Shown here one piece after another: positions 16,130 through 31,466 of a stretch of DNA of 64,000 nucleotides. The stretch's first letter is position 1, and each line of letters starts with the position of its first letter. The stretch spans positions 134-64,133 of the forward strand of contig JAZDCY010000041.1 in assembly GCA_036679645.1 (NCBI GenBank), in the 5' to 3' direction. The stretch comes from Gemmatimonadota bacterium (GTDB lineage Bacteria > Gemmatimonadota > Gemmatimonadetes > Gemmatimonadales > GWC2-71-9). A model generated the notes under the pieces. It was not told the origin of the DNA and made no database searches. It was given only the letters and a program-made list of their open reading frames with translations. The position numbers and the translations under genes were made by a program.

Positions 16130-16155
16130 AAACCCCGGGCTCACGCCCGGGGTTT
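16130..16155. repeat. REP-like perfect hairpin (11-bp GC-rich stem, TCAC/GTGA tetraloop), single copy of the family arrayed at 60916-61160
   Basis: AAACCCCGGGC-TCAC-GCCCGGGGTTT. The 35 nt at 16131-16165 are the exact reverse complement of 60903-60937. Flanked by four TCATCG(C/T) motifs. Confidence 0.85.
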
Positions 16156-16207
16156 GGTCGCGCGACTAAGCATCGTCTCTCATCGCCACTATCATCTCCG
16201 CCCTCTT

Positions 16208-16230
16208 AACTTTACGCCCATGCGTTCGTC
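16208..16230 (+). promoter_or_regulatory. candidate ECF-type promoter (AAC-N16-CGTC) upstream of the sigma factor gene
   Basis: ttAACtttacgcccatgcgttCGTCtctctcatcGTG. Spacing and motifs resemble the generic ECF -35 GAAC / -10 CGTC. The -10 lies only about 10 nt before the GTG start, so the transcript would be near-leaderless. Confidence 0.3.
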
Positions 16231-16239
16231 TCTCTCATC

Positions 16240-16797
16240 GTGACGGCACCCGACGCTCATCCGGCACCCTCGGATGTCGAGCTGATCGCCGGATGGCGGG
16301 CAGGCAACGAGCACGCGGCAACCGAGTTGGTGAAGCGGCACGGCCACGCGGTTGCCCGGTACCTCAGCGCGGCCGGTGCGGACGCGGATCTCGATGATCT
16401 GGTACAGGAGGCGTTCTTTCGGGCGTTTCGGAAAATCGCCACATTCAAGGGTGGGGCGAGCTTCCGAACCTGGGTCATGACCATTGGCCGTAACGCGCTC
16501 CGGGACCTGCACCGCAAACGCGGCCACCGGGCCATGCTGAGCCTCGAGGACCGTGACATCGCCGATAGCCGGTCCGACCCTCACAACGAGACGATCGGGC
16601 GCGACCTAGAGGAGCGGCTGCACACTGCGGTTGCGCAACTACCGCCCATGCAGCGCGACGTCTTTCTCCTGCGGGCGCAGCAGGGGCTGGGGTACACGGA
16701 GATCGCGGAGGCTTTGGACACATCCGAGGGCGCGGCGCGCGTGCACTACCACCACGCGGTGAGACGGCTCAAGGCAGCCCTGGAGGAAACGGGATGA
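16240..16797 (+). CDS. ECF-subfamily RNA polymerase sigma-70 factor
   Basis: Region 2 (DLDDLVQEAFFRAFRKIATFKGGASFRTWVMTIGRNALRDLHRK) and region 4 (LPPMQRDVFLLRAQQGLGYTEIAEALDTSEGAARVHYHHAVRRLK). Confidence 0.9.
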   Translation: MTAPDAHPAPSDVELIAGWRAGNEHAATELVKRHGHAVARYLSAAGADADLDDLVQEAFFRAFRKIATFKGGASFRTWVMTIGRNALRDLHRKRGHRAMLSLEDRDIADSRSDPHNETIGRDLEERLHTAVAQLPPMQRDVFLLRAQQGLGYTEIAEALDTSEGAARVHYHHAVRRLKAALEETG

Positions 16798-17195
16798 CGG
16801 ATATAGACGAACAACAACTGGAGCGACTCGCCGCACGGCTGGGGGCATCCGGAGGCAACGACGTGGATCTCGATCGCGTCGCGGAACAGGTCGTCTCACG
16901 GCTGCGCTCGGGCGAGAAGGTCCCAGCACACCACCGGGTTTGGCCCTGGCTCGTAGCGATGGCGGCCGCGGCTACTCTGGCGGTACCGGGATACCAGTGG
17001 CTGCACGAGATTGGTGGCGGCCCATCAGCTCGAGTCGTTGCCGCACCGGTGTTGGATCTCCTCACGGGGGCCGAATTGGCAGAGGTGCTGGACTCGCTGG
17101 ACTTCTCCGCGCCGGTCACCGAGGTGGTGACGGCCACGTTGGACGATATGAATGAACAGCAGCTCGAGGAGTTGCTGGCAATCATGGAGGGATGA
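16794..17195 (+). CDS. putative anti-sigma factor (single-pass membrane protein)
   Basis: ATGA-coupled to the sigma gene. 133 aa with one hydrophobic segment (VWPWLVAMAAAATLAVPGY). Position is typical for a cognate anti-sigma; no recognisable ZAS motif. Confidence 0.5.
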   Translation: MTDIDEQQLERLAARLGASGGNDVDLDRVAEQVVSRLRSGEKVPAHHRVWPWLVAMAAAATLAVPGYQWLHEIGGGPSARVVAAPVLDLLTGAELAEVLDSLDFSAPVTEVVTATLDDMNEQQLEELLAIMEG

Positions 17196-17662
17196 TGCGC
17201 TGGTTGATAGCGCTTGTGGCGTTGCTCGCGCTGGCCGAACCCATGTCGGCACAGGTGCGCCCCAACCCCGAACGGCTGCGCGAGCAAGTCGTCGCCCGGT
17301 TCATCGAGAACTTCCGCAATCAGGCGGGTCTCACCGACGATCAGTTCACGCGGTTTCAGACGGTCACGCGTCGCTCGTGGCAGACACGGCGCGAGCTGGA
17401 ACAGCGGCAACGCCAGGTCCTTCAGGCCATGGAACAACAGATGCGCCCGGGCGTCGCCGCCGATCCAGACAGCGTAACCACCCTGATAGATGCACTGCTC
17501 GAAATCCAGGAAGGGCAGGTCGCGCGGGCACGCGCAGATCAGGAGGACTACGCGGCGTTTCTCGATCCCGTCCAACGGGCTCAGCTGGTGTTGTCCTTCA
17601 CCCGGCTGGAGCGGCAGATCGAGCAGATTGTGAGACGGAGGATGCAGCAGCAGGGGCGCTGA
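17192..17662 (+). CDS. periplasmic LTXXQ-motif protein (Spy/CpxP/ZraP-like)
   Basis: Signal peptide MMRWLIALVALLALAEPMSAQ. GLTDDQFTRF (LTXXQ) and LDPVQRAQL motifs; helical, Q/R/E-rich. ATGA-coupled to the upstream gene. Confidence 0.6.
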   Translation: MMRWLIALVALLALAEPMSAQVRPNPERLREQVVARFIENFRNQAGLTDDQFTRFQTVTRRSWQTRRELEQRQRQVLQAMEQQMRPGVAADPDSVTTLIDALLEIQEGQVARARADQEDYAAFLDPVQRAQLVLSFTRLERQIEQIVRRRMQQQGR

Positions 17663-19333
17663 TCACCGCCTTCTTCCCCCCAGTTCCAGCCCCACCCTGA
17701 ACCTCAGCGTCGTAAACTGCTCCCGACGCTCAATGCCACCGACGCGGGGGAAGTCGTACCGCTCGAGACTGTAGTACAGTCCGCTAGTGAGCTTGCCGCT
17801 GCGGTACTCGACCCCGGCACCGGCCTCGAATCCGAGGTTTGGCGACTCGCCTAGTCCGCTGACGGACACCACTGGCAGCAGGTACCCCCGGAACACCGCC
17901 CGCAACGCGCCTTCCATGAGATCGAATCGCGCTTCGCCGCCCGTGCGAATCGATGTCCAGCGCTCGGTGGCCGCATCGGTGACGTACGATCTGAGCCCTG
18001 TGCCCACCGTGAACGTGAGCCAGGGCAGGGCACCGACGTTCACGTCGAAGTGGGCGTCGTTGACCGTCCGGTCCAACACACCCGGTACATCGGACGTGAG
18101 CTTGCCGACCGACCCGTACGCCAGCACCTCCAGTCGGGTGGCAATGGTCCACTTGATGCCGCCGCCGAACATGAGGCCGGCCGTCTTGTCGACGCCGGCG
18201 CCGACGTCCACGCGATGCTCCGCGTGCCTCACGTCGGTCCAGAACGACACGCCCTTGGTGAACACCATGGACGCATCGGCCGGCACTTGGGCAAAGACCC
18301 CCTCGCGCGGCGTCCAGCGGCGTGCGCCGAGTGCCGCTCCAAGACCCCGCCCCCGCCCCCGCCCCCGTCCCCGGCGGTCGCCGGCACCTGCCGCACGTTG
18401 CTGAGCCTGCGCTCGTCCGCGCCGCGGCCGGCGCGCGATGATTCGGGGTCGACGGGCGATCACTTCCACCGGCGTCTCGGCACTGACCTGAATCGTTGCC
18501 GTATCTACAAGACCGTGGAGCTGGGCCACGACGCGGCCTGTGCCCTCCTCCACCCCGACTACCGTTCCGGACGCCGAATCCACCTGCACGACCTCCGGAT
18601 CGAGCGTGGTCCACGAGGGCCTTGCGCTCGGGATCGGCTCGCCACGACGATCGACGCGGGCCAGGACGAGCGCCAGTGTGTCTTCGAGCGGCTTCACACG
18701 CATGTTACGATCGGCAATGATCGCAATGCGAGTTGCTCGCTGCCGCACGCGCACCTCGACCGTTTCTTCTTCTTCACCGACGCGACAGCGCACACGCGTG
18801 ACACCGTTACCCAGGGCGGTGACGAATCCGCCGATGGCGACCACAGCCACCGCCTCGTTCTCGCTCAAGCAGACGTCCGCGAGATCGACCGGCACGAGCG
18901 TGTCCGGTAGCGCCACCGGGGTCAACTCGAGGAGCATCGTATCGCCGATCGCATCGAAACGCACGCGCCCAGGCAGAATGGCGAACTGAATTCGCTCGGG
19001 CGGAAGCTCGACCACTACCAGCGCGGACACCGAGTCCGCGCCGATGCTGGCCCAGACCCTCGTCACGCCGTTGGCCCGCGCGGTCACAAGCCCGTTGGGG
19101 CTCACTTGCGCCACTTCCGGATCGGAAGACCACCACCGCATCGCGGCGCCGGATACGACACGGCGCTCCGCGTCCACCACTTCCGCGCCGACGGACGCCG
19201 TCTCACCCGCAGCACGCAGCCGCAGGACATCGCGATCGAGCGACAGGGACACCGCATCGCCCGGTGTATCGCCGCCGCTGCGGCACGCGGGCGCGAGCAC
19301 GAGGGTCGCAAGCGCCAGCGCGATGGCTCTCAT
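17663..19333 (-). CDS. secreted protein: about three Big_2-like Ig domains, an Arg/Gly-rich linker and a C-terminal beta-barrel-like domain
   Basis: Signal peptide MRAIALALATLVLAPAC (possible but non-canonical lipobox). Repeated ...V..V...G.V.A...G...V.A modules. RRPRRGRAQAQQRAAGAGDRRGRGRGRGRG linker. Roughly 200-aa C-terminus with alternating hydrophobic strands and aromatic strand ends. ATGA-coupled to the upstream gene. Confidence 0.7.
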   Translation of the reverse strand: MRAIALALATLVLAPACRSGGDTPGDAVSLSLDRDVLRLRAAGETASVGAEVVDAERRVVSGAAMRWWSSDPEVAQVSPNGLVTARANGVTRVWASIGADSVSALVVVELPPERIQFAILPGRVRFDAIGDTMLLELTPVALPDTLVPVDLADVCLSENEAVAVVAIGGFVTALGNGVTRVRCRVGEEEETVEVRVRQRATRIAIIADRNMRVKPLEDTLALVLARVDRRGEPIPSARPSWTTLDPEVVQVDSASGTVVGVEEGTGRVVAQLHGLVDTATIQVSAETPVEVIARRPRIIARRPRRGRAQAQQRAAGAGDRRGRGRGRGRGLGAALGARRWTPREGVFAQVPADASMVFTKGVSFWTDVRHAEHRVDVGAGVDKTAGLMFGGGIKWTIATRLEVLAYGSVGKLTSDVPGVLDRTVNDAHFDVNVGALPWLTFTVGTGLRSYVTDAATERWTSIRTGGEARFDLMEGALRAVFRGYLLPVVSVSGLGESPNLGFEAGAGVEYRSGKLTSGLYYSLERYDFPRVGGIERREQFTTLRFRVGLELGGRRR

Positions 19334-20376
19334 CGGATGACCCCCGTCGTTGGAATCACGACCAACCGCGCGCTCGCCAGCCGGGCGTCGTTCCGGGCCA
19401 TGATCTCCGTGTTCTCGCGGTTGCGCGCCGTCTGCCGCCGCAGGTTCTCCACGATGTTCTCGGGAATCTCCGGGTGACTACTGCGGAACGCGAAGGCCAC
19501 TAGCCCCGCAATTGCGCCGGCACCGGCAGCGACACCGGCCTGCGGACCCGAGAAGTCGAGCTCACTGCTGCCAAACACTCGCGGGATGACGAGCGCACCG
19601 GCCGCTACACCCAACCCAACCGCCAGCTCACGAATCGCGACCCCCCCCCCGTAACGCGTGCCGAGAAGGTCGTCGCTGCGCAACTCAGCCAACGTATCCT
19701 CGAGCGCTTCGGGCAGTTGGTGCTCGATATCAAACAAGACGCGCACGGAATCCTGGCGTCCACCTCCCCGCGTACTGCTCCCCCATACCACCAACTCGTA
19801 CGAGCCGGGATCGATCAGCCCGCCATCGGAGAGTGTGCCGTTCCAGCGTATCTGTCGGAATCCGTCGTTCTGCCCCTGGAAGATCGGCACCTGCAACTGC
19901 TCGAAGATACTGCGGATCTCGACGCTGACCTGGCCCTCGTGTGTCGTCACGATATCGAGCGTGAGGTTATCCGATCGCGGGTCGATGATCGTGTCGAGAA
20001 TGGGTCTGAGACCAACCCGAAAGGTCCGTAGCTTGGCTTCGCCAAACGCGCCACGTTCCTGGGGGGTGAACTTCTGTGGATCCAGATCGGCAAACGGATC
20101 GCGCTCGATGGCTGCGAGGAAATAGCGGCCGGCGGAGTCGGGTTGTTGCAGGATGGCGTACGACGCCCCGAGGTATAGATAGGCCTGGACACGTTGGTCC
20201 AGAGACACCTCAAAGGGCGAGTTCCCCGAGACAACCTGCATGAACATGTCGCGCGCGCGCTCGACCTGCAGCTGCTCGTAGAAACCGATCGCCTGGGATA
20301 GCTGGTCGGCCGCGGTTTGTGCGGCCACAGCAACGGGCGCCAGTACAGACGCGAAAACGAGGATAATCGTACGCAC
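19330..20376 (-). CDS. secreted TPR-like / FlgD-Ig-like domain protein with a C-terminal glycine-zipper hydrophobic segment
   Basis: GTG 20376 gives M-RTIILVFASVLAPVAVAAQ (signal peptide). AIGFYEQLQVERARDMF...AYLYLGASYAILQQPDSAGRYFLAAIERDP is TPR-like. FRQIRWNGTLSDGGLIDPGSYELVVWG is FlgD Ig-like. GLGVAAGALVIP...GVAAGAGAIAGLVAFAF is a Gly-zipper. The 713-aa track ORF is an artefactual extension into the kinase gene. Confidence 0.65.
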   Translation of the reverse strand: MRTIILVFASVLAPVAVAAQTAADQLSQAIGFYEQLQVERARDMFMQVVSGNSPFEVSLDQRVQAYLYLGASYAILQQPDSAGRYFLAAIERDPFADLDPQKFTPQERGAFGEAKLRTFRVGLRPILDTIIDPRSDNLTLDIVTTHEGQVSVEIRSIFEQLQVPIFQGQNDGFRQIRWNGTLSDGGLIDPGSYELVVWGSSTRGGGRQDSVRVLFDIEHQLPEALEDTLAELRSDDLLGTRYGGGVAIRELAVGLGVAAGALVIPRVFGSSELDFSGPQAGVAAGAGAIAGLVAFAFRSSHPEIPENIVENLRRQTARNRENTEIMARNDARLASARLVVIPTTGVIR

Positions 20377-22154
20377 TAGTTCCCAGCCTCCCGCAACTGG
20401 CGGCCCGCGAGGTTCACCGTCTGATTGGGCTGTGCCGTGAAGGTCGTATCGAACGTGACAAATCCGGAGAGTTCGATCCTCACCTGCACCGGGACGCCGG
20501 CCGAGATACTGTGTCTCATGACTCGGCCGGACCCCACGCGCTCGCCATCTACGAAAATCTGGGCCGACAGCTGGCCCGGTACCAGGGACACGTTCAACGT
20601 CGCGGTCCCCGTCGGTTGTAGCGCGACCGGTTCCTGTGGCCGTGGCCGCGCTCGCGGCGGGGTGTTCGCGGGCCCCGCCCGGACGCGCTGGAGCCGGGGC
20701 GTGACTGGAGTAGCCTGTCCCGCGATCACGCTGGCTTGATTTGTGTAGTTCTCGTATCCGCCCGCGCGCACGGTGTACTCGTACGTCCCCGGCGCCAGAT
20801 CCGCGAGCGTGTGCCCCGTGAAGATCTGACCACCAATGTTGATGGTTGCGCCGTCCGGGAGCCCCGCGAACGCCAGCGAACCGGTCGTCGGCGCCGCGGG
20901 CACCGACTCTTGGAGTGTTGCCGGCACGAGGAACGAATCCAGCAGACCCGCCTGCCAGGCTCCGACTCCGCCGCCGCCCAGCACGAGCACGAGAATGATG
21001 AGCACCAACGGGAGCTTGGACTTCTTCTTCTTCTTCTGCTCGAGGGCCTTGGACGCGCGCTTGAGCCCAGACGGAATCTTGCCACCCGGTTGCGTGAGCC
21101 GAAGCGGTGGCAGCGAGCCGGTCCGTACGAGATCTATCTTGACGCCCTTCGACAGCTCGCGCAGCAGCCCGCCAGCTTCGCGCTTCTCCACGTCGGTCAC
21201 GGGCACCGCCGCGAGCGTATCGACGAGATCGTGCGTGCTCTCGAAGCGATCCGCGGGCTTCTTCTCCATTAGCCGGTAGACGATCGCCAGCAGGTCCTCC
21301 GGCGTGCCCTTGCGCACCTGGGTCAGGTCGGGGACGGGCGTGAGATAGTGATGCTGGATCACGCCCATGATTGAGTCGGCCTCGAACGGGAGCTGGCCGC
21401 TCAGCATCTGGAAGGCAAGCACCCCCAACGAGTATTGGTCCGCCTGCGGGCCCAGTTGCTGACCGCCGCACTGCTCGGGGCTCATGTAATTGGGCGTGCC
21501 GATGACCATACCACTGGCGGTGAGTGATGTCTCACCCATGGCGCGCGCGATTCCGAAATCCGACACGAGCACGCGCCCGTCGGAATCGACGAGGATGTTC
21601 CCGCCCTTGATGTCGCGGTGGATGATCTTCCGATCGTGCGCGAACGCCAGGGCGCTCGCCGTGGCCTCGAGCAGCTTCATGACGACGGAAAAGGGCAGGG
21701 CGCCCTGCACCTCGAGGATATCATCGAGGGCGCGCCCCTCGACGAACTTCATCGCCATGTAGTAGAGCTTGTCCTTCTGCCCGACCCGATAGATGGGGAT
21801 GATGTTCTGATGATCGAGCGACGCCGCCAAGCGTGCCTCGCGCTTGAAGCGTGCAGCGGTATCGCCCTGCTGGGCCATCTCGGGCGGGAGCACTTTGATT
21901 GCCACCGTGCGCTCGAGCATCCGCTCCTTGCCCCTGTACACGATGGCCATGCCGCCGCGGCCGACCTCTTTCTCGACCTCGTAGTCTTCCTTCAGCTCCT
22001 CGCGTAGCTGGACGAGCAGCGGATCTGTAGGTATCGAGGAGAGGGCCACCGTCGCTGCCGACGGATCACCCGTCTGATTCCCGCAGTTGGTGCAGAACGC
22101 GCTCCCAGCATCGAGGGGCGAGCCGCATTTTCCGCACTCGGTGGTCGTGGTCAT
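20376..22154 (-). CDS. Hanks-type Ser/Thr protein kinase with N-terminal zinc ribbon, one TM helix and two extracytoplasmic PEGA-like domains
   Basis: CGKCGS...CTNCGN; GRGGMAIVY, VAIKVL, HRDIKGGNIL, DFGIA, GTPNYMSPE. KKKKKSKLPLVLIILVLVLGGGGVGAW (TM). GSLAFAGLPDGATINIGGQ...YEYTVRAGGYENY and TLNVSLVPGQLSAQIFVDGERVG...VRIELSGFVTFD (PEGA-like). Confidence 0.9.
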   Translation of the reverse strand: MTTTTECGKCGSPLDAGSAFCTNCGNQTGDPSAATVALSSIPTDPLLVQLREELKEDYEVEKEVGRGGMAIVYRGKERMLERTVAIKVLPPEMAQQGDTAARFKREARLAASLDHQNIIPIYRVGQKDKLYYMAMKFVEGRALDDILEVQGALPFSVVMKLLEATASALAFAHDRKIIHRDIKGGNILVDSDGRVLVSDFGIARAMGETSLTASGMVIGTPNYMSPEQCGGQQLGPQADQYSLGVLAFQMLSGQLPFEADSIMGVIQHHYLTPVPDLTQVRKGTPEDLLAIVYRLMEKKPADRFESTHDLVDTLAAVPVTDVEKREAGGLLRELSKGVKIDLVRTGSLPPLRLTQPGGKIPSGLKRASKALEQKKKKKSKLPLVLIILVLVLGGGGVGAWQAGLLDSFLVPATLQESVPAAPTTGSLAFAGLPDGATINIGGQIFTGHTLADLAPGTYEYTVRAGGYENYTNQASVIAGQATPVTPRLQRVRAGPANTPPRARPRPQEPVALQPTGTATLNVSLVPGQLSAQIFVDGERVGSGRVMRHSISAGVPVQVRIELSGFVTFDTTFTAQPNQTVNLAGRQLREAGN

Positions 22155-25100
22155 GGTACGGTGATCGCTGTCTGAGTCCCGTTAATCGTCAAATCTAGCG
22201 TATCCGTCGCCGTCACGGTCTGCTCGCCAGGCGTCTGGAGCGTTACTCCTGCGGCGAACAGGTGAACCCCGGCGTCACCGGTGACGAACGTGAAGTCGCC
22301 CGGCAGCACGACAGCCCCCGGATCGGTGGTGGTGAACACTATCGTCCCGGTGTAACCTGTCGCCACGTTGCCGAACTGGTCGCGTGCCGTGACGATCACG
22401 TCCGAAGTCGCCCCCGCAGTCAGCGGATCGCTGATTCCCGTCACATCGAGGCTCACGGCCGGACCCGCCACCACCGTTATTGCGCTTTGCGTGCCGTTGA
22501 TCGTCCCGGCAGCGTTGTCTGTAGCCGTCACCGACTGCTCGCCCAGTGTGACCAGCTCGACGCCACCGCTGAAGCTGTGGATCCCGGCATCGCCACCGGT
22601 GAACGTGTAGTTAGCCGGGAGCACCACTGCTACGTCGACATCACTCGAGCTGAAGGTGACGGTGCCGGTATATGCGGGTGTCACGTTGCCGAACTGATCC
22701 CGGGCCGTCACGGTCACGTTGGATGGGACGCCTGCGCCGATGGGATCACTGATCCCCGTGACGCCGAGGCTCGCCGTCGCATCGGGATTGACCGTGATCG
22801 CGCTCTGGGTGCCGTTGATCGATCCGACCGCGTTGTCGGTCGCCGTCACCGACTGCTCACCCGCCGTTACCACGGTCACACCGGTCACACCGCTGGGGAA
22901 GACGTGGATTCCGGCATCACCACCGGTGAACAGGTAGTTCGCGGGGAGTACCACGCTCGCGCCAACATCGCTCGACGTGAAGGCCACGGTCCCGGTGTAG
23001 CCCGTGGCCACATTCCCAAACTCGTCACGTGCCGTCACCGTTACCCCTGAACTCGCCCCTGCAGTGACCGGATCGCTGATTCCCGTCACATCGAGGCTCA
23101 CGGCCGGACCCGCCACCACCGTTATTGCGCTTTGCGTGCCGTTGATCGTCCCGACAGCGTTGTCTGTAGCCGTCACCGACTGCTCGCCCAGTGTGACCAG
23201 CTCGACGCCACCGCTGAAGACGTGGATCCCGGCATCACCGCCGGTGAACGTGTAGTTCGCCGGGAGCACCACTGCTACGTCGACGTCAACCGAGCTGAAA
23301 GTGACGGTGCCGGTGTATGCGGGTGTCACGTTGCCGAACAGATCCCGGGCCGTCACGGTCACGTCGGATGGGACGCCTGCGCCGATGGGATCGCTGATCC
23401 CCGTGACGCCGAGGCTCGCCGTCACATCGGGATTGACCGTGATCGCGCTCTGGGTGCCGTTGATCGATCCGACTGCGTTGTCCGTCGCCGTCACCGACTG
23501 CTCGCCCGCCGTTACCAGGGTCACACCGGTCACACCACTGGGGAAGACGTGGATTCCGGCATCCCCACCTGTGAACAGGTAGTTCGCGGGGAGTACCACG
23601 CCCGCGCCAACATCGCTCGACGTGAAGGCAACGGTTCCGGTGTACGCGACGTCCACGTTTCCGTTGACATCCCGTGCGGTCACCGTGACTCCCGAGCTGG
23701 TCCCCGCCGTGACGGGATCGCTGATCCCGGTCACGTCGAGACTCACCGCCGCGCCGGCCACGAAATTGACGGTGGCGTTGTCGGTGATGGTCGATTCGTT
23801 GACCGCACCGGTGACGGTCGCGGTGACCGGTGCCGCCGTGCCCGACGTCAGGGTAGCTGTGTAGGTCCCGTCGTTGTTGTCAGTAATCGCACCCAGGCTG
23901 CCCGCCGTGGTGAACAGCTCGACGCCATCGCCTCCGTTCGGGAGCTGGGTGTTGGTCGCGTCGAACAGGGTAACCGTCACGATCGACGTGCTGACACCAT
24001 TCGCCACGACCTGCCCTGCCGAGACATCGATCTGCGTCTTGGTCGGATCGACGGTGGAGAACTTGGTCACTGCGAACGTGGTGCTGCCGGCCCCGCTGGT
24101 GGTGGAGATCGTCCGCGTGCCATCCGCGTTCCCCAAGCCGAGGGTGGTTTCCGCCAGTCCGTCGGTGTTGGTCGTCACCACTAGCGGCCCACACGACTTG
24201 GGTCCGTCATCGTTGATATCGTCCCGTGGCCCCTGTCCCGCGTCACAGTTCACCGTAATCGTGAACGTGACGCCGGCAGTGTTGATGGGTCGCTGGTCGG
24301 CATCGACCGTACGCGCGGTGAGCGCGAAGGGCACGGTCCCTATCACCGCTCTGACCTGCCCGTCACCGCGGACGGATCGGAGCGTAACTACGGGGCCTCC
24401 AGACGCCGGGTAAGTCGGTGCAAGCTGGACGTTGCCGGTGTAGGTCGGCGTGAACACGCCCACGAAGACGACGGAGTCGCCCGTAGCGGCTGAGTCGGCG
24501 CTCGACGTGAACGTCGTGAGATCACGCCTCGGTCCGCGACCGTCACCCCACCAGTTGTTGAGATGGCCGTTGTCGCCGGGAAGGTCCGCCGCACCCAGCG
24601 AATCGTTGTCGAAGATGTCGTTGGCGGTGAGCACGAGGCTTGTCGGTGCAGTGAACCGCGCCCCGACATTGTTCAGATACATCCGGTTTCGCATCACCGA
24701 ATCTGCGGACCCGCCGTTGACGTGTACGGCCGCCCCGACATCGACGCCGGCAAGTGACGTGACGTCGGTGATGACGACGCTGTCGATCCGCATGCCGGTC
24801 ACGTTGTCCAGACGCACGCCGTATCCGTTCACGTGCTGGATGACGGATCGGCGGATCAGTCCGCTGCCGGTAACCGTGACGTTCTGGATGCGGACCCCGC
24901 GACCCCTGATCGTCGGCGGGCCCGCAGGGTTCACGTAGAAGAACTCGAGGTTCACGGTCGCGCCATCGGTACTGACGGCAGGACCGCCCGCGGCATGCTG
25001 GAACGCCAGGTGGCGGAGCGTGACGGTGGTGAAGCTCGGCGCGGTGATTCCCTGTGGACCCGAGTTATACCTGATCGTGGGCAACGCCGTCGGCGTCGCG

Positions 25101-28100
25101 CAGGCCGTGCTGCTGCACCCTGCCGCCACCGTATCGATCCCCTGGATGATGATCGAAGATGAGACGTTGAGGGCCCCGGAATAGGCGGTCGATGCGGCGG
25201 CAACGTATACCGTGTCGCCGGGATCCGCCGCGTCGATGGCGTTCTGGATTGCAGCGTACGGGGCCTTGATGGTCCCGAACCGCGGCGACGCGGGATTGTC
25301 CTTGTCGACGTAAATGGCGGTCGGGTTCTTGACCGCGACGATCGTCCCCGCGGAGGTGACCAGGCCGCTCGTCGCCGAGATCTCGACGGAGTCCGGCGTG
25401 AATGCCAGGGCCGTGATCGTGCCACTGCCGTCGACACTCACGAGCAAGTCGTCAGACGAGTTCCACGAAACGACGGCGCCGGGTATGGGGTCGCCCTGGA
25501 CGTTCAACACCGTCGCCGTGTACGTCAGCGTCTGCGTGGTGGCGGTCAGCGTGTCGCGCGTCGAATTGAGGGTCACCTGATCCGGCTGATTCTCCACCGT
25601 CACGAGAATGGAGTCGCGCAGGTTGACGTTCGCGGGGCTCACCGCCTTGATGAACGTGGTCCCGGCCGCCTGCGCCGTCACCTCGCCGTCGGTGCTGACC
25701 GTCGCCACTGTCCCATTGCTGGTGATCCAGTTGGCTGCACTCGGGGTGAGCACGTCGTTGTTACCGTTCCGGAAGTTGGTCCCAGGCGTGAACACGGCGC
25801 CGATGCTGGTCAGCGTCGTGTCGACCGAGGTGATGTCCAGGATCACCGGATCGTTGCTCACCGAGACCGTAATCTGGGCCTCGACGCTGTCCGGACCCGC
25901 GCCGACGAGTACCTGGGCGAACAGGGTCGCGGTACCGGTACCCGCAGCCGTGATCAGACCGGCGTCGATCGTGGATGTGGCAGGCACGGTCACGACACCG
26001 GCGTCGTTCGTGCTCCAGAAGATTTCGGAGCCCGGAATGGGATTGCCAAGGTCATTGCGCACCGTGGCCGTGACGGTCGACGCATCGCCGACGAAGCCAA
26101 GGGAAAGCGCGGTCGGTGACAGCGTCATCGTGGCCGCGTTGTTCTGCACTACCAGTGTGGCCAGCGACACGACCGCGGGCGTGCCCGTCACCGCCGCCGT
26201 GATTGTAACCGTTCCCGTACTGATGGCGGTCGCGAGACCCACCGGCGAGATCGTTGCGACAGCACTGTCGGTGGATCCCCATGTGATCCCGGTCCCGCTG
26301 ATCTCTCCGCCCGCGGCGTTCACGACGGTAGCCGAGAAGGCGAGCGTCCGGCCGACCGCCGTGAGGGTCGCCGAACCCGGCGCCAGCAGGACGGCATCGG
26401 GCGCGTTGGTCACCGTGACCACGATCGACGAGGTCAGCGTCGGGTTGAACGGACTCGTGATCGTGATCGTCGCGCTCCCGACGCCGGCCGCCGCCACGAC
26501 ACCGTCCCCTGAGACGGTTGCGACGCTCGTGGCACCGCTCTCCCAGAGCACCGCGTTTCGTGGTAGCGCGCCGCCGGTCCCGCCGGGGCCGTTGGTGATC
26601 GTCGCCCCGGGACTGTACGCGTCACCAATACTGGCGAGGGTCGTGTCGACCGACGTAAGCAGCACCGTTTGCGGTGCGTCGGCGACGGTAATGAAGGCCG
26701 AGGTGCCAACCGAATCCAGGGACGGATTGGTCCAGGCGACGATTTGCGCAGCGCCCGTATTGGTGAGCGATGCCGTGACGAGCCCGTTGGCGTCGACCGT
26801 CGCGATCGTCAGGTTCAGCGACGCCCAGTTGACGAGCGAGTCCGGCACCTGAGCGCCCAGCTCGTTGGGAGCGGACGCCGTGAGCTGAAGTTGCGCGCCG
26901 AGATTCTCGATCGTGTCCTGCGCCGGTGAGATACTGATCGACTGGGCGTTGTTGGTCACCACCAGCACGGAGCTGTCGGCAAGACCGTTCGCCGTCGTGC
27001 CGACGATCAGCGTCGTGTCGATGTCCTTCGCACTCCCCACGCCGGCAACACTCATCGTCGCCACGCGCGGGACCGTCGAGGACCATGTCACCGGCGCACC
27101 CGGAATGAGCCCCCCGGCGGCATTGCGTACCTCCGCCGCAAACGGCAGCGTGAGACCCACGGCCGTCAACGTGTCCCGCGTCCGATCGAGTACGATCGAC
27201 GCCGGCGCGTTGGTCACGGTCACCGTGATCGACGAGGTGAGCGTCCCGTCAAATGGGCTCGTGGCGGTGATAACCGCGTCGCCCGCGGCCTTGGCCGTCA
27301 CGAGTCCGGTTCCGGAGACGCTCACGATGTTCGGGTCGGCCGTCGACCAATCGACGGTCCCACGCCCGAGCGGAACACCGAGCCCATCCTGGATCGTGAT
27401 CCCCGGCAAGTAGCTATCATCGACGCTCGCGAGCGTCGTGTCACCAGAGGTGAACAGAACGACGGTCGGCTCCTTGTTGACCGTCACGAGGATCGACGCC
27501 GTCACACCATCGACCGTTGCCGAGACGGTCGCCGAGCCTTCACCGACCGCCGTCAGCAGACCGCTCACCCCGGTGCCCGACACGGTGACGATCCCACTCG
27601 GCACTGCTGTCCACGTCACCGTCGGACTGGGGATCGGGTTGCCCAACTCGTTCAACACGGTCGCCGTCAGGGTCTGCGTTTCGCCGATACTCCCCAACGT
27701 GGCGAACGTCGGAGAAATGGTCACGCTGTTGGCGTCGTTGGTGACGTTCAGTATCGCGGTGTCAGCTACCCCTCCCGCCGTGCCGATGATAAAGGCCGAG
27801 CCAACCCCCACCGCGGTAGCCAGCGCCGTGGAGGGTCCGGTCGAGGAGATCGTGGCTACAGCGGAGTCGGAGGATCCCCAGCCGACCGTGTCCGCTATGA
27901 TGCCCGCGCGCGCGTTGCGCACGGTCGCGACGTAGGCCTGCGTACGCTCCAGCGACGTCAGCGTATTGACGGTCTGTAGCACGTCGATTGAGGCAGGAGC
28001 ATCGGTCACGGTGACCGTGACCTGGTCGACTTGGCCCGGGTTGAACGGGTTCGTGGCACGAATGATCGCGTCGCCTCGGCCCCTCGCAGTTATGACCCCT

Positions 28101-29773
28101 ACTTCTGTGACCGTCGCGACCGCCCCATTGTCCGTGCTCCAGTCCACGGCGTCGCGTGAGAGCATGCCTCCCCGTGAGTTCAAGATAGTGACGGCAGGGA
28201 TCCAGATATCTTGGGCACTGGCGAGCGTCGTATCCGTGGGTATGATGTCGACGGTCGCCGGCTGATCGACCGTCGCGACAACCGCCGTGTCGGCGATGGT
28301 CGTCGAATTGACGGTCGCGATGATACGCACTGTGCCAACCAACAGCGTGGTCGCGAGCCCGGTATTGTCGACGATCTGGACGATGTCGGGAAGGAGCGAC
28401 CGCCAGCTCACAGAAGCTTCGGGCACCGAATCCCCGCGGCCGTTGCGCACCGTCGCCGTGAACTGGACCGAGTCTCCCACGGTCTCGATGACCGCGGTGT
28501 CAGGTGTGATGGTCACGGTGCGCGGTTGATTCGTCACGAACACGAAGACGGTATCCGTGGCCAGATCCAGCTTGGCTTCGATGACCGTGTTCCCGACTGT
28601 GAGAGCGCGCACGACGCCATCTGGGTCCACCACCTGCGCGACGGACGAGTTGCTCGAGGACCACGTGGGCTTCGCACCAATGTCCGCGCCTTCGCTGTCG
28701 AGCGCGCGCGCACCGAACACCACCTCTTCCTGGAGCGAGGTGATTCTCACCGTGTCTAACCCGATGATCTCGATCGTCTGCGCCCTTTGATCGACCGACA
28801 CGGGGAGAGTGCCGACAACCGTGCCCGCCGTCGCAGTCACGGACGTCTGCCCGTTCGACACGGCGGTGATGGTGCCCGACGACGGGTTAACCGTCGCTAT
28901 CGCCGGGTCCAAGCTCAGCCACGTCGGCGTGGGAGCAGCACCTCCCGGAATGACGTTTCCGCGGGAGTCGATCGGCGTCACGCCGATGGTCACGGTGGCG
29001 GTGAGCGCTGCGATCTCGGCAATCGGCTGGTCGAACAGGAAACTGGAGAGGACCTGCGAGACCACGACGGCCACGCTCGCGGTGTCGTCATCGACGATGG
29101 CGTAGACGGTGGCCACCCCGTTGCGCCGCGAGACGATGCGGCCCGCTGCATCGACTGTCGCGACCGAGTCGCTCGTGGACTCCCACGCGATCGTCGTGTT
29201 GGCTATTGCAGCCCCGAGCGCATCGAGCGCGTCACCTCGGACCACGAGCGTGTCGGTCAGACTCGCGAAGACAGCCGTGGCGGTGTCGAGCGTGACCCGA
29301 TCAGCAACAGCGCGCACCGGCTGCTCGAAGAACGGTCGCTCGTCACCAAGCGTGGCGCCGATGAGCGAGATCCGTAACGTGGCGCGCCCGCGCCCCACGA
29401 CGCGCAGCGAGTCGCCGTCGGGCGTGATGAGGACGACCCCGTTATCGGACGACGAGAGCTGGATGCGAGGCTCGGATTGTGCCGTCCCGTCCACCGTCAC
29501 CGAGATGGACGGGGCGATGATTGTGCCCACGACGAGCGTCGTATCGGACGTGAAGGTGATTACGATACCCGAGATTCCGGGTTCGGACAGCAGATCACAG
29601 GTCGAGAGGATGCCGGCCAGGCCAGCCACGCCTACCAGCCGCGCGACGAGTCGCGCGCGCGGAGGAACCACCGCGTTGATCCGCTTCATCGGGCCTCGAT
29701 CCGCCGGGCTGTTGAAGCGACCCACCACCTGCATCGCTCTCGCAGCCAACGACCATAACTCATTGTTTGCCAA
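22151..29773 (-). CDS. giant (2540 aa) cell-surface protein: N-terminal signal/anchor, about 15 Big_2-like Ig domains, a right-handed beta-helix module, and Big_1/invasin-like domains including 5 near-identical C-terminal repeats
   Basis: Single uninterrupted 7.6-kb ORF. Recurrent ...W.SS...VATV...G.VTA...G.A.I.A... modules. Beta-helix segment IYVDKDNPASPRFGTIKAPYAAIQNAIDAADPGDTVYVAA...GVRIQNVT...GVRLDNVTGMRIDSVVI... C-terminal VTARD.FGN...YTGTV.F.S.D...LPANY.FTGGDAGIH.F repeats. An alternative start at M29 (29689, MKRINAVVPP...) has a GAGG 5 nt upstream. Confidence 0.9.
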   Translation of the reverse strand: MANNELWSLAARAMQVVGRFNSPADRGPMKRINAVVPPRARLVARLVGVAGLAGILSTCDLLSEPGISGIVITFTSDTTLVVGTIIAPSISVTVDGTAQSEPRIQLSSSDNGVVLITPDGDSLRVVGRGRATLRISLIGATLGDERPFFEQPVRAVADRVTLDTATAVFASLTDTLVVRGDALDALGAAIANTTIAWESTSDSVATVDAAGRIVSRRNGVATVYAIVDDDTASVAVVVSQVLSSFLFDQPIAEIAALTATVTIGVTPIDSRGNVIPGGAAPTPTWLSLDPAIATVNPSSGTITAVSNGQTSVTATAGTVVGTLPVSVDQRAQTIEIIGLDTVRITSLQEEVVFGARALDSEGADIGAKPTWSSSNSSVAQVVDPDGVVRALTVGNTVIEAKLDLATDTVFVFVTNQPRTVTITPDTAVIETVGDSVQFTATVRNGRGDSVPEASVSWRSLLPDIVQIVDNTGLATTLLVGTVRIIATVNSTTIADTAVVATVDQPATVDIIPTDTTLASAQDIWIPAVTILNSRGGMLSRDAVDWSTDNGAVATVTEVGVITARGRGDAIIRATNPFNPGQVDQVTVTVTDAPASIDVLQTVNTLTSLERTQAYVATVRNARAGIIADTVGWGSSDSAVATISSTGPSTALATAVGVGSAFIIGTAGGVADTAILNVTNDANSVTISPTFATLGSIGETQTLTATVLNELGNPIPSPTVTWTAVPSGIVTVSGTGVSGLLTAVGEGSATVSATVDGVTASILVTVNKEPTVVLFTSGDTTLASVDDSYLPGITIQDGLGVPLGRGTVDWSTADPNIVSVSGTGLVTAKAAGDAVITATSPFDGTLTSSITVTVTNAPASIVLDRTRDTLTAVGLTLPFAAEVRNAAGGLIPGAPVTWSSTVPRVATMSVAGVGSAKDIDTTLIVGTTANGLADSSVLVVTNNAQSISISPAQDTIENLGAQLQLTASAPNELGAQVPDSLVNWASLNLTIATVDANGLVTASLTNTGAAQIVAWTNPSLDSVGTSAFITVADAPQTVLLTSVDTTLASIGDAYSPGATITNGPGGTGGALPRNAVLWESGATSVATVSGDGVVAAAGVGSATITITSPFNPTLTSSIVVTVTNAPDAVLLAPGSATLTAVGRTLAFSATVVNAAGGEISGTGITWGSTDSAVATISPVGLATAISTGTVTITAAVTGTPAVVSLATLVVQNNAATMTLSPTALSLGFVGDASTVTATVRNDLGNPIPGSEIFWSTNDAGVVTVPATSTIDAGLITAAGTGTATLFAQVLVGAGPDSVEAQITVSVSNDPVILDITSVDTTLTSIGAVFTPGTNFRNGNNDVLTPSAANWITSNGTVATVSTDGEVTAQAAGTTFIKAVSPANVNLRDSILVTVENQPDQVTLNSTRDTLTATTQTLTYTATVLNVQGDPIPGAVVSWNSSDDLLVSVDGSGTITALAFTPDSVEISATSGLVTSAGTIVAVKNPTAIYVDKDNPASPRFGTIKAPYAAIQNAIDAADPGDTVYVAAASTAYSGALNVSSSIIIQGIDTVAAGCSSTACATPTALPTIRYNSGPQGITAPSFTTVTLRHLAFQHAAGGPAVSTDGATVNLEFFYVNPAGPPTIRGRGVRIQNVTVTGSGLIRRSVIQHVNGYGVRLDNVTGMRIDSVVITDVTSLAGVDVGAAVHVNGGSADSVMRNRMYLNNVGARFTAPTSLVLTANDIFDNDSLGAADLPGDNGHLNNWWGDGRGPRRDLTTFTSSADSAATGDSVVFVGVFTPTYTGNVQLAPTYPASGGPVVTLRSVRGDGQVRAVIGTVPFALTARTVDADQRPINTAGVTFTITVNCDAGQGPRDDINDDGPKSCGPLVVTTNTDGLAETTLGLGNADGTRTISTTSGAGSTTFAVTKFSTVDPTKTQIDVSAGQVVANGVSTSIVTVTLFDATNTQLPNGGDGVELFTTAGSLGAITDNNDGTYTATLTSGTAAPVTATVTGAVNESTITDNATVNFVAGAAVSLDVTGISDPVTAGTSSGVTVTARDVNGNVDVAYTGTVAFTSSDVGAGVVLPANYLFTGGDAGIHVFPSGVTGVTLVTAGEQSVTATDNAVGSINGTQSAITVNPDVTASLGVTGISDPIGAGVPSDVTVTARDLFGNVTPAYTGTVTFSSVDVDVAVVLPANYTFTGGDAGIHVFSGGVELVTLGEQSVTATDNAVGTINGTQSAITVVAGPAVSLDVTGISDPVTAGASSGVTVTARDEFGNVATGYTGTVAFTSSDVGASVVLPANYLFTGGDAGIHVFPSGVTGVTVVTAGEQSVTATDNAVGSINGTQSAITVNPDATASLGVTGISDPIGAGVPSNVTVTARDQFGNVTPAYTGTVTFSSSDVDVAVVLPANYTFTGGDAGIHSFSGGVELVTLGEQSVTATDNAAGTINGTQSAITVVAGPAVSLDVTGISDPLTAGATSDVIVTARDQFGNVATGYTGTIVFTTTDPGAVVLPGDFTFVTGDAGVHLFAAGVTLQTPGEQTVTATDTLDLTINGTQTAITVP
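22154..23749 (-). repeat. intragenic tandem repeat: five modules of 102-108 codons in A-B-A-B-A' order, A+B super-unit 645 bp, long stretches near-identical at DNA level
   Basis: Protein repeats read directly. Shadow ORFs 22368-22610 and 23004-23255 (and 22719-22937 vs 23301-23582) on the opposite strand give almost identical peptides with ends offset by exactly 645 nt. Confidence 0.9.
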
Positions 29774-30135
29774 CCGCTTATGGCCTCATACGTCGCTCGG
29801 CCTCTGCGTGCGCTCGGCATGGTTCCCGTGCAGTGGGGTGTCTACAGTACTCCGCCCGGTCCATTTCGCAAGGAGTGCGCCAAACGAGGGCAAGTGGGGA
29901 TGGGAAGCGGGGTTAGCGGATTTGGGACGGGGCCAGTCGCGTATTCGCGCCCGTCGCCTGCATTGATTTGATCACGGGAAGAGGCCGAGCGTAGATTATC
30001 GTTGGGACATGCCGGTAACGGCCAAAGCTGTCGCGCGAATTCTGCGACCGGTTCGGCGACGAGGTTGTCGACGAGCTGGTGGGGTCCGCTTGCCGCCCGC
30101 CGCGCACCCCGTGCCGGTGTATATTCGTGACCCCG

Positions 30136-30218
30136 GCCCGAGTGGTGGAATGGCAGACACGCGGGACTCAAAATCCCGTGCCGGCAACGGCGTGAGAGTT
30201 CGACCCTCTCCTCGGGCA
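30136..30218 (+). tRNA. tRNA-Leu (anticodon CAA), type II with long variable arm; CCA not encoded
   Basis: Acceptor GCCCGAG/CTCGGGC plus discriminator A. Anticodon stem CGGGA/TCCCG with loop CT-CAA-AA. Variable arm TGCCGGCAACGGCGT. T-arm GAGAG-TTCGACC-CTCTC. Confidence 0.9.
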
Positions 30219-30342
30219 CTGTCGCAGCACAACGAGTTGGGGCCGTACACGCCGAGACGCCTCCTTCACGATCACTTCACGGTCATAATCCGCCTGCGGT
30301 GTACGTTGCATGGGTAGATACGTGCATTCGAGGTAGTCGGCC

Positions 30343-30840
30343 ATGTGGAAGACCATGGTGCGGTCGCTACTATCCCTCACGCTCGTCGTGGCGGCCACCT
30401 CCTGTCTGTTTCCCTCAGAGCCAGTTGGGCAGCTTGACCTGTCCATCAGTCTGGGCTCCAACCGCATGCGTCCCGATTCTGGGATACTCGTCCGGGTCGA
30501 AGCGACCAACCGCACTCCCCGGGTTGTGCGTTTGAAGACGAGTGGAGGCTGCGTCGTCAGTTTCGGCGTCATAGCGCCCAACGACGCCGACGTGGCCCCT
30601 CGCTTTGCCTGCGCGAGCATTCTCGAGCCTCTTGACATCGCCCCGGGCGAGGCGGTCGTCAGGGAGCATCTCCTGCTACCCACTCCGCGCCTTGACCGGG
30701 TCCGCGGGGCGATTCGGTGGCCCGCCGGGACCTATCAGGTCATCGGGTATCTGATCGGCGAGCAGACGCAGATCGTGCGCCGGACTGAGCCGGTCGAGTT
30801 CGAGTTGGTGTGTCGCGACCCGTCGTGGACGGAGTGCTAG
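30343..30840 (+). CDS. hypothetical lipoprotein
   Basis: MWKTMVRSLLSLTLVVAATSC (signal peptide plus lipobox-like VAATSC). 165 aa, beta-rich; no family recognised. Confidence 0.55.
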   Translation: MWKTMVRSLLSLTLVVAATSCLFPSEPVGQLDLSISLGSNRMRPDSGILVRVEATNRTPRVVRLKTSGGCVVSFGVIAPNDADVAPRFACASILEPLDIAPGEAVVREHLLLPTPRLDRVRGAIRWPAGTYQVIGYLIGEQTQIVRRTEPVEFELVCRDPSWTEC

Positions 30841-30917
30841 ATCTGGGGACTTCCAACTCGCGGACGCGGGCAGCACGCTCGAGACCTGCACCGGGCGCCG
30901 TAGGATGGAGATCTGAG

Positions 30918-31466
30918 TTAGTACCTCTTGTGCCCCACCCGCGCGTGCCCAAAAGACGCGCCGAGCGGAACAGTTACGGCGAAGGCGAGGCCGCCCAGGA
31001 GCCCCGGCCCGATGTCGCAGCTCCCCGGATCGTCGAGCGAATCACCGCCCAACTCACAGGCCGTCAGTAGTATGGCCACCCCAACCGCCGCTCCCACGAG
31101 GCCACCCAGTGCCGTTCCTGTGGGTCGTAACCCCTCGCGAGCGTTCGTAACCAGTCCAACACCGATAAGCGATCCAGCAACGTAGGCCGCTACGGGTGGC
31201 GCGGTTGACGCCCCGGTATCCGGCTGGAGAGCACGCACCGCCAGAAGTGCTAGGAGCCCACCGCCGACACCCCACAGGGTGCGTTCGACACCGGTCGATG
31301 CGCGCCGCGTAGGTCCCTGGAGGACGAGCTGGTTTGGCAAAGTGCTGACCGACCCAGCGGTCGCAGGATGTACTGTCGCCGGCAATCGCTGCGCAGCGGC
31401 AGGCGCTGTCAGGGCCGCAAAGATAGCGGTGACGACGATTCCGAAGGCGAGTCTAGAAGTTCGCAT
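30918..31466 (-). CDS. hypothetical secreted/membrane protein with glycine-zipper segments
   Basis: Signal peptide MRTSRLAFGIVVTAIFAALTAPAAAQ. GVGGGLLALLAV, GSLIGVGLV, GGLVGAAVGVAILL. Confidence 0.5.
   Translation of the reverse strand: MRTSRLAFGIVVTAIFAALTAPAAAQRLPATVHPATAGSVSTLPNQLVLQGPTRRASTGVERTLWGVGGGLLALLAVRALQPDTGASTAPPVAAYVAGSLIGVGLVTNAREGLRPTGTALGGLVGAAVGVAILLTACELGGDSLDDPGSCDIGPGLLGGLAFAVTVPLGASFGHARVGHKRY

Follow-up and report, generated by a model that had tools for sequence, protein, structure and literature searches.

The contig JAZDCY010000041.1 of a Gemmatimonadota bacterium (assembly GCA_036679645.1) was analysed over 64,000 nucleotides (positions 134 to 64,133, hereafter the window). 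It carries an operon of four overlapping envelope genes that is, on balance, probably a trans-envelope sensory module of the Gemmatimonadota, reporting outer-membrane or surface events inward by phosphorylation. Four consecutive open reading frames (ORFs) occupy positions 17663-29773 of the minus strand in the order G1, kinase (G2), G3 and G4. They encode a lipoprotein-type protein with a long array of immunoglobulin (Ig)-like domains, a Hanks-type Ser/Thr kinase with extracytoplasmic PEGA domains, a putative exported adaptor, and a protein ending in a predicted outer-membrane beta-barrel (the C-terminal part, G4C). This reading draws on domain and fold assignments, on strict synteny with overlapping genes, on invariant catalytic residues in the kinase, on the size range of G1 and on a natural swap of the transmitter.

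A conserved and tightly coupled gene unit

Homologous loci were collected from one genome per GTDB species with a single strict peptide pattern, which returned 69 loci; with this design, absence from cultured strains is not established. Neighbours were then counted by tblastn with the proteins of the window, the denominators being the loci with enough flanking sequence. A homologue of the kinase, complete with zinc ribbon, Hanks domain, transmembrane helix and PEGA, lies directly upstream of G3 in 57/57 loci, and a homologue of G4C directly downstream of it in 67/67. A long Big_2/beta-helix protein precedes the kinase in 35/42 loci; together with six loci that have a miniature form instead, a G1-type lipoprotein gene is therefore found in 41/42. 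The initial annotation of the window, made from its sequence alone, had proposed the four genes as one module, and the synteny across related genomes bears this out.

The coupling extends to the gene junctions. As first described, the G1 stop and the kinase start overlap as ATGA at 22154-22151 (ccATGAcc on the minus strand), the kinase stop and the GTG start of G3 overlap as TAGTG (aacTAGTGcgt) with nucleotide 20376 common to both, and the G3 stop and G4 start overlap as ATGA at 19333-19330 (cgATGAgag). Across loci, the kinase-to-G3 junction measures -4 nt in 51/62, the G3-to-G4 junction -4 or -1 nt in 57/66 and the G1-to-kinase junction -4 or -1 nt in 36/44. Conserved overlaps of four or one nucleotides at three junctions fit co-translated subunits in fixed proportion. 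These comparisons support the view that the four genes are a real, conserved and tightly coupled unit and not a chance adjacency.

The unit has a narrow taxonomic distribution. Sixty-seven of the 69 scan loci are labelled Gemmatimonadota or one of its subgroups; the other two are L033, from a metagenome-assembled genome (MAG) labelled Solirubrobacteraceae, and L071, labelled only 'bacterium'. For G3, 139 database homologues were found, and all source names that bear a taxon say Gemmatimonadota. A profile search of 1.84 billion cluster representatives (50% identity) yielded 143 G3 clusters at E<=1e-30, including a second tier of full-length relatives of ~350 aa whose named members are again Gemmatimonadota. 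The order of kinase-PEGA, G3 and a barrel of ~217 aa is repeated in the loci L079 and L081 and in the context of P0317, while L078 presents a 2353-aa G1-type protein, a zinc-ribbon kinase with PEGA, G3 and a 207-aa protein in succession. Some distant modules have no G1 (the P0317 context and L080), and the module occurs once or twice per genome. The core of the unit is the triad of PEGA transmitter, G3 and barrel together with the N-terminal domain of the lipoprotein. A literature search found no description of this gene combination, and the initial annotation had likewise not recognised it as a described system.

An exchangeable transmitter

The kinase domain scores 169 bits with Pkinase (PF00069), far above the gathering cut-off of 31.7, which places it among the Hanks-type enzymes. 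It carries the VAIK lysine, the alphaC glutamate, the HRDxKxxN, DFG and SPE motifs, the aspartate of subdomain IX and the arginine of subdomain XI. All the Hanks catalytic residues and the four cysteines of the zinc ribbon are invariant in 56/56 kinase orthologues; the invariance of the catalytic residues argues that phosphotransfer is under selection. The best NCBIfam match to the domain is PknB_PASTA_kin (1e-93), below the cut-off of that family. After the transmembrane helix, PEGA (PF08308) matches two stretches with 46.4 bits against a gathering cut-off of 20.8. The kinase thus has the architecture first ascribed to it, the zinc ribbon being the weak match (Table 1).

A distant locus, L080, carries a different enzyme in the same position. 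There, the gene overlapping the G3 start by 4 nt encodes HisKA (aa 138-198) and HATPase_c (244-353) domains, one transmembrane helix and a C-terminal PEGA (505-565), and so repeats the layout of the Hanks kinase except that its transmitter is that of a histidine kinase. The adjoining G3 is ~27% identical to that of the window, as judged from an 86%-identical relative in L077. Behind it comes a 220-aa protein homologous to G4C, by hmmsearch with the A2 profile (4e-5) and by a blastp chain through L081 and L079. In L077 itself, only a 74-aa PEGA gene appeared to lie upstream of G3; a loss of the kinase was considered and rejected, since the locus has an assembly gap there (N run 9478-9576) and L080 resolved as a histidine kinase. 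The swap in L080 therefore leaves a constant unit of transmembrane helix and PEGA, G3 and G4C, usually with the N-terminal domain of G1, on which the output domain is exchangeable. An output domain that changes while the extracytoplasmic unit stays the same is characteristic of a sensor input device, and the swap argues that PEGA, G3 and the barrel, with or without the lipoprotein, form a trans-envelope sensory input unit.

Two further observations concern transmitter genes. Just upstream of the histidine-kinase variant, L080 encodes a 1111-aa protein (2656-5991, +) that begins with a Pkinase domain and ends in a PEGA domain, the ~750 residues between them matching nothing in Pfam; it is the second transmitter with a PEGA tail in that locus. 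In L002/L012, a 3.98-Mb contig (MFD05377.bin.1.62), the kinase is split between a tblastn match at 8465-9121 and a separate 297-aa PEGA ORF at 9111-10004, and the G1 homologue is likewise in pieces; these breaks are probably frameshift errors in a long-read assembly, not pseudogenes.

A lipoprotein-type protein of variable size

The longest frame of G1 opens at TTG 29773 (22151-29773, 2540 aa), the length first proposed. This frame exists, and its likely start is ATG 29689 (22151-29689, 2512 aa), because a typical signal peptide, MKRINAVVPPRARLVARLVGVAGLAGILSTC, begins at that codon and has a Cys that recurs in all homologues. Behind the N-terminal Ig-like domain, a self-trained repeat hidden Markov model (HMM) detects, with one further weak N-terminal repeat, 15-16 Big_2-like domains over aa ~40-1441, in keeping with the initial estimate of about 15. 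The Pfam matches of the whole protein are Big_2 (5e-37), Invasin_D3 (2.7e-19), Big_1 and, weakly, Beta_helix (3.5e-4). The beta-helix module was also part of the initial description: faint in the window, it is strong in the 2353-aa homologue of L078 (Beta_helix 1e-68 and NosD 1e-35, along with Big_2), and a region homologous to it is kept upstream of the kinase in most loci.

The C-terminal part ends in five Ig repeats (aa 1973-2497 by self-trained HMM; TRF period 327 x 4.3 at 22362-23752) that resemble Yersinia invasin (PDB 1cwv, 6.8e-6). They had been taken for near-identical copies. Their number stands, and near-identity is confined to some pairs of what is an A-B-A-B-A' series: repeats 2 and 4 are 94% identical, repeats 1 and 3 85%, and the other pairs 59-72%. 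The extension formed by Invasin_D3 and the five repeats had no tblastn counterpart in the 69 genome-scan loci and is specific to the window; its only match is L001, a metagenome contig with identical copies of the window genes.

G1 orthologues range from 122 to 1836 aa and cluster near 1330, the 2512-aa protein of the window being the longest member. At the other extreme, a mini-G1 gene of ~125 aa, ending at the kinase start, encodes just one Ig domain behind a signal peptide with the conserved Cys. That Ig domain aligns with the N-terminal domain of the long proteins and is the only part of G1 kept in both forms. Roughly 30% of modules have such a mini version. The mini-G1 replaces the long protein in 6 of the 7 loci that have no long form, among the 42 with room for it. 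The MAG SMAG_U11559 carries module copies of both kinds (L019 and L024), and in L065 a stretch of 11 kb holds portions of two modules, one on each strand, so that paralogous modules coexist. Size variation around a conserved N-terminal domain, with both forms in one MAG, is the behaviour expected of interchangeable antennae. Judged by this distribution, the giant part of G1 is not core to the module and is lineage-specific or incidental. The early proposal of a kinase hard-wired to a giant adhesin is not supported in that form, the conserved partner of the kinase being only the N-terminal Ig domain of G1.

The putative adaptor and the predicted barrel

The AF2 model of G3 (pLDDT 90.1) comprises a signal peptide, TPR-like helices (aa 22-117) and a FlgD-like Ig sandwich (121-220), then two Gly/Ala-rich hydrophobic helices (246-268 and 278-300), an Arg/Asn-rich helix (305-334) and a terminal strand. 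Foldseek matches to it include FlgD and TPR proteins. In the window, the Pfam matches are weak and below the gathering cut-offs (TPR 0.006, with TPR_1 at 16.7 bits; FlgD_ig, PF13860, 0.013, 15.9 bits); among homologues, TPR is recovered in 35/38 and FlgD_ig in 30/38 (best E 6e-6 and 1.8e-6, respectively). The initial call of a secreted TPR and FlgD-Ig protein is thus recurrent in homologues and matched by the model. A SlyB-type glycine zipper was considered for the hydrophobic hairpin and rejected as anything closer than a loose structural analogy, having no sequence support in PDB or Pfam. A profile of the C-terminal 117 positions reached a best E of 0.08 against PDB sequences, with six matches of which none is named SlyB or glycine-zipper lipoprotein, and the scan of G3 and its homologues gave no Gly-zipper Pfam match at E<=0.1.

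The C-terminal 216 aa of G4 are modelled with high confidence (AF2 pLDDT 90.4, pTM 0.82) as 10 strands joined by loops of 2-8 residues. The best PDB match by Foldseek is OpcA (E 2.4e-8, TM 0.62), followed by OmpT/Pla (TM 0.52-0.62); 136 PDB structures match at E<=1e-3, and the best 50 of these 136 are all outer-membrane barrels. G4C is accordingly a predicted outer-membrane beta-barrel of the OpcA/omptin-like 10-stranded fold. Structure comparison and HMM searches agree here with the initial annotation, which had reported a C-terminal beta-barrel-like domain behind three Big_2-like domains. Beyond its Ig domains, G4 matches no Pfam or NCBIfam family. The residues E32, H33, R34, E184, R185, D187, R196, E198 and Q199 of G4C are invariant or nearly so and lie at strand ends.

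In most genomes, G4C is a stand-alone protein of ~215 aa, and homologues have AxA-type signal peptides; the lipobox-like signal of the window's G4 reads A-P-A-C. A barrel with fused Ig domains adjoins G3 in only 4/67 loci, all in the subclade of the window. The RG-rich linker between the two parts is encoded by (CCCCGC)x4.8 at 18345-18373 (an RGRGRG stretch), and related fused G4 proteins have acidic disordered linkers, not RG-rich ones. The linker was rejected as a functional element because it is encoded by a hexanucleotide repeat and swapped for acidic linkers in relatives; it looks like a recent, slippage-prone expansion of low complexity. The Big_2 part and the linker, which had both been counted as part of G4 at first, therefore do not belong to the core.

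Table 1. Features of the four-gene module and their coordinates in the window
Feature	Position	Strand	Evidence
G1, lipoprotein-type, 2512 aa, variable 'antenna' component	22151..29689	-	ORF and Pfam
G1 signal peptide ending in lipobox-like ILSTC (Cys31)	29597..29689	-	Cys in 42/42 aligned homologues
G1 N-terminal Ig-like domain	29315..29596	-	Alignment of 42 homologues; conserved C, GD, G, P, D, D.L, G, L, P, V columns
G1 array of ~15 Big_2-like domains, aa 124-1441	25367..29320	-	Self-trained HMM, 15 repeats, E 1e-21 to 1e-27
G1 right-handed beta-helix (CASH/NosD-like), aa ~1500-1860	24110..25192	-	Pfam Beta_helix 3.5e-4
G1 Invasin_D3 (aa 1881-1979), then 5 invasin/Big_1-like Ig repeats	22199..24049	-	Pfam, TRF, repeat identities, PDB match
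G2, Zn-ribbon / Hanks Ser/Thr kinase / single transmembrane helix / two periplasmic PEGA, 592 aa, transmitter	20376..22154	-	Pfam, NCBIfam
G2 N-terminal CxxC...CxxC zinc ribbon, aa 4-26	22077..22145	-	Pfam Zn_ribbon_3 / Zn_Ribbon_1, weak
G2 kinase catalytic domain, aa 58-306	21237..21983	-	Pkinase 1.5e-49
G2 transmembrane helix, aa ~381-399	20958..21014	-	Hydropathy peak 2.46
G2 extracytoplasmic region, two PEGA domains, aa ~420-590	20385..20897	-	PEGA 3.6e-12, two stretches
G3, signature gene of the module	19330..20376	-	AF2 pLDDT 90.1, Foldseek, Pfam in homologues
G4, 556 aa: lipobox-like signal, three Big_2-like domains, RG-rich linker, C-terminal outer-membrane barrel (predicted)	17663..19333	-	ORF, Pfam, HMM
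G4 three Big_2-like domains, aa 23-97, 104-185, 192-272	18518..19267	-	HMM domains
G4C, core 10-stranded outer-membrane beta-barrel (predicted), aa 341-556	17666..18313	-	AF2, Foldseek
Operon 5' non-coding region, presumed promoter region	29690..30135	-	No ORF with coding-like composition; reaches divergent tRNA-Leu

A proposed sensory module across the envelope

With a cytoplasmic kinase and zinc ribbon, PEGA domains beyond the transmembrane helix, an exported G3, a predicted outer-membrane barrel in G4C and a conserved lipobox Cys in G1, the products together would span the envelope once. In the mechanism that we propose, the barrel and G1, the latter through its conserved N-terminal Ig domain, would sit in the outer membrane. 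G3 would be exported and held in a membrane by its two hydrophobic helices, its TPR and FlgD-like Ig parts spanning the periplasm, and could connect barrel and lipoprotein with both PEGA domains of the kinase. Changes at the cell surface or in the outer membrane would alter the contact between PEGA and G3 and switch the cytoplasmic Hanks kinase, which might then phosphorylate targets encoded elsewhere. The trigger could act on the G1 'antenna', as contact with a ligand or a surface or as tension, or could lie in faulty assembly of the outer membrane. In the window, this antenna would have grown to ~21 Ig domains and a CASH-type beta-helix, and the barrel would have gained three further Ig domains.

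Several points weigh against a sensory module. The histidine-kinase variant is seen in one clade only, comprising L080 and L077 with its assembly gap. Neither the module nor the rest of the window encodes an FHA protein, a PP2C phosphatase or a response regulator. The lipobox of G1 reads L-S-T-C in the window, and its Thr at -1 is non-canonical with respect to [LVI][ASTVI][GAS]C. The topology of G3 is ambiguous, as two hydrophobic helices would put the Arg-rich tail in the periplasm, contrary to the positive-inside rule. All module members come from MAGs or metagenomes, and a search for a cultured species gave only names of Gemmatimonadota MAGs besides the Solirubrobacteraceae and 'bacterium' records. 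Lastly, two fusions, P0290 (Pkinase and G3) and P0291 (PEGA and G3), were set aside and not used as evidence because a single-base error at the 4-nt overlap would yield them, making them possible frameshift artefacts.

A stronger form of the proposal seems to us possible, short of probable: a phylum-specific pathway in which a pair of outer-membrane barrel and lipoprotein gates an interchangeable transmitter, either Hanks or histidine kinase, through a TPR/Ig coupler and PEGA, with the lipoprotein serving as an evolvable surface antenna.

Alternative explanations

The module could instead be an apparatus for surface display or export, with G4C as exporter or anchor, G3 as a TPR chaperone or usher and G1 as an adhesin or glycan-binding protein brought to the surface, the kinase regulating or licensing the process. 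The initial annotation had left the choice between surface display and envelope sensing open. Display draws on the likeness of the long G1 proteins to surface adhesins, with their Big_2 and invasin-like Ig arrays and CASH beta-helix, and ~21 Ig domains would, from domain size, be too long for the periplasm. The genes for G1 and the barrel would also share a transcription unit, judging from the conserved overlaps, and TPR domains are commonly chaperone or docking modules. The polar residues of G4C at strand ends (EHRVD; LERYDFP; R.EQ) would map to the extracellular rim under the standard topology of outer-membrane proteins. However, mini-G1 modules have one Ig domain and nothing to display, and some distant modules (the P0317 context and L080) do entirely without G1. 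Known autotransporter barrels have 12 or more strands, and a 10-stranded barrel with loops of 2-8 residues is without known precedent as a protein-conducting channel. Display also leaves the interchange of Hanks and histidine kinases unexplained, whereas envelope sensing fits this swap on the same unit of transmembrane helix and PEGA, G3 and barrel. We therefore regard display as the weaker part of the initial proposal and as rather unlikely.

A structural role appears less likely still. Here, the barrel, G3 and the PEGA protein would form a tether or organiser linking both membranes, comparable to Tol-Pal, OmpA or Lpp and regulated by phosphorylation, which would serve envelope integrity or division with G1 as an accessory. 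Every layer from the outer to the inner membrane would indeed be represented among the components, the overlapping genes suggest stoichiometric coupling, and the module sits among housekeeping genes rather than in an island, at one or two copies per genome. Yet Pfam scans detected no peptidoglycan-binding domain (OmpA_C, LysM or SPOR), the invariant catalytic kinase and the histidine-kinase swap point to information transfer, and the variable extension of G1 is left unexplained.

The fold of G4C raises the question of whether the barrel is itself an omptin-like enzyme, a protease or other hydrolase, whose activity or substrates (G1, for instance) the kinase would monitor or control through G3. 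The active site of omptins lies at the barrel rim. The model matches the 10-stranded OmpT/Pla fold (TM 0.52-0.62), and the conserved His, Asp, Glu and Arg at the strand ends of G4C resemble that rim position. Against this, G4C has no match to any Pfam or NCBIfam family, omptin (PF01278) included, its identity to OmpT/Pla is only 8-11%, the best structural match, OpcA, is not an enzyme, and the loops are far shorter than those of omptins; we consider such an activity very unlikely.

Finally, a fortuitous adjacency of unrelated envelope genes, which has nothing in its favour except that Ig-domain proteins and Hanks kinases are generally common in genomes of this kind, is refuted by the 57/57 and 67/67 synteny, the conserved overlaps and the retention of the arrangement at 27% G3 identity, and we grant it almost no probability.

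Comparison with known systems

To our knowledge, how the outer membrane signals to the cytoplasm is understood only in a few proteobacterial systems (Rcs, sigmaE, Cpx/NlpE, Fec-type and TagQRST-PpkA), and we know of nothing comparable in the Gemmatimonadota, an abundant and barely studied soil phylum. In the Rcs system, the lipoprotein RcsF together with an outer-membrane protein barrel reports the state of the outer membrane to IgaA, which controls the RcsC/D/B phosphorelay. A mini-G1 (~105 aa when mature) and a barrel make for a similar parts list. No sequence relationship was detected, however: the Pfam matches of G1 are only of Ig type and G4C has none. The output also differs, being a Hanks kinase (a histidine kinase in one branch) encoded in the same operon, and G1 has extensions of up to 2,400 aa.

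The nearest functional precedent is found in Pseudomonas aeruginosa, in which damage to the outer membrane is signalled to the Hanks kinase PpkA by TagQ in the outer membrane, TagR in the periplasm and TagST (PMC7817224). In this threonine phosphorylation pathway of the H1 type VI secretion system (T6SS), which includes PppA and Fha1, the logic is alike: an outer-membrane component, a periplasmic coupler and a eukaryote-like Ser/Thr kinase with a periplasmic domain (PMC7817224). The parts nonetheless share no homology. The periplasmic domain of PpkA is not PEGA, and the genes of the window include no TagQ-, TagR- or TagST-like protein and no T6SS, FHA or PP2C genes, so that the module is not a member of this system. 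In the module, a barrel and an Ig-domain lipoprotein would take the outer-membrane place, and TPR and FlgD-Ig parts make up the coupler, along with hydrophobic helices of its own.

Other resemblances concern single components. Like intimin/invasin inverse autotransporters (type Ve), the C-terminal part of G1 has Invasin_D3 and invasin-like Ig repeats, and in G4, as in classical autotransporters (type Va), an N-terminal Ig array that resembles a passenger precedes a C-terminal barrel. Unlike either, G1 has no barrel of its own and carries a lipoprotein-type signal; the barrel is separate, 10-stranded and without an Autotransporter or IAT_beta match, and in most genomes it has no passenger, which places the proteins outside both classes. 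PASTA kinases (PknB/Stk1/PrkC) have the same layout as G2, with a cytoplasmic Hanks kinase, one transmembrane helix and repeated small beta-rich ectodomains. The module differs from them in its PEGA ectodomain, its N-terminal zinc ribbon, its diderm host and the outer-membrane and periplasmic partners in the operon. The predicted fold of G4C shares its 10 antiparallel strands with OpcA and OmpT/Pla, from which it is set apart by identities of 8-13%, very short loops on both sides and the lack of a family profile match. Trans-envelope signalling is thus a known kind of system, achieved here, apparently, with unrelated parts that are confined to one phylum.

If the stronger form of the proposal is true, PEGA would gain a defined role for the first time, and the module would be a counterpart in function to Rcs or TagQRST whose parts are unrelated to theirs. 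PEGA is uncharacterised, and G3 and G4C are two protein families without a Pfam family of their own, so that the module would assign roles to all three. It is a defined and testable four-protein candidate with kinase autophosphorylation as a readout, and the series from mini to giant G1, together with the change from Hanks to histidine kinase, offers a natural comparison of antenna and transmitter exchange. For genome annotation, it accounts for the joint occurrence of two 'hypothetical proteins' with a kinase and a giant Ig-array protein.

Genomic surroundings

Upstream of the operon, 446 non-coding bases separate the probable G1 start from a divergent tRNA-Leu(CAA) at 30136-30219 (+), the sole RNA gene found in the window with ARAGORN and Rfam. 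Promoter and terminator scans of positions 16000-31000 were uninformative, returning no more matches than in shuffled sequence, and the 5' region at 29690-30135 has no match to the sigma-70 consensus. A 17-nt tandem repeat of 2.2 copies lies at 29782-29818 in this region, just upstream of TTG 29773.

At the other end, the G4 stop codon (17663-17665) directly abuts base 17662, the last of a convergent three-gene set (16240-17662, +), and this zero spacing is as first described. The set encodes an extracytoplasmic function (ECF) sigma factor (Sigma70_r2/r4_2), a 133-aa protein with a single transmembrane helix and a secreted, helical protein of 156 aa whose LTxxQ-like motifs read GLTDDQ and LDPVQ, the three genes overlapping each other. 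An ECF homologue lies within 10 kb of the module in 6/25 fully flanked loci, at varying positions; in L002, such a trio adjoins the module, but its two small genes are not homologous to those of the window. Because of this loose linkage and the non-homologous partner genes, the trio of ECF sigma factor, anti-sigma factor and LTxxQ-like protein was rejected as part of the module. A mobile-element or defence-island context was rejected as well, the flanks consisting of housekeeping and catabolic genes.

Four coding-like ORFs between 30343 and 33869 (30343-30840 +, 30918-31466 -, 32478-33245 +, 33342-33869 +) have no Pfam match at E<=0.01. Further along, at 56611-59768 (-), a 678-aa Ig-rich envelope protein (LVIVD repeats 1.7e-16, weak Big_1, Big_2) overlaps the start of a 374-aa beta-propeller-like protein, and the two genes may encode another surface or periplasmic pair. 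A 223-aa protein at 3132-3803 (-) matches the Vasohibin family with an E of 9e-6, just above the gathering score, which is unusual for a bacterium. Lastly, a catabolic cluster at 6859-15888 encodes two PaaA/PaaC-like proteins (13603-14475 -, 14935-15888 -), two enoyl-CoA hydratases, a 3-hydroxyacyl-CoA dehydrogenase, a thiolase and an aldehyde dehydrogenase, and is consistent with ring degradation of the phenylacetate type.

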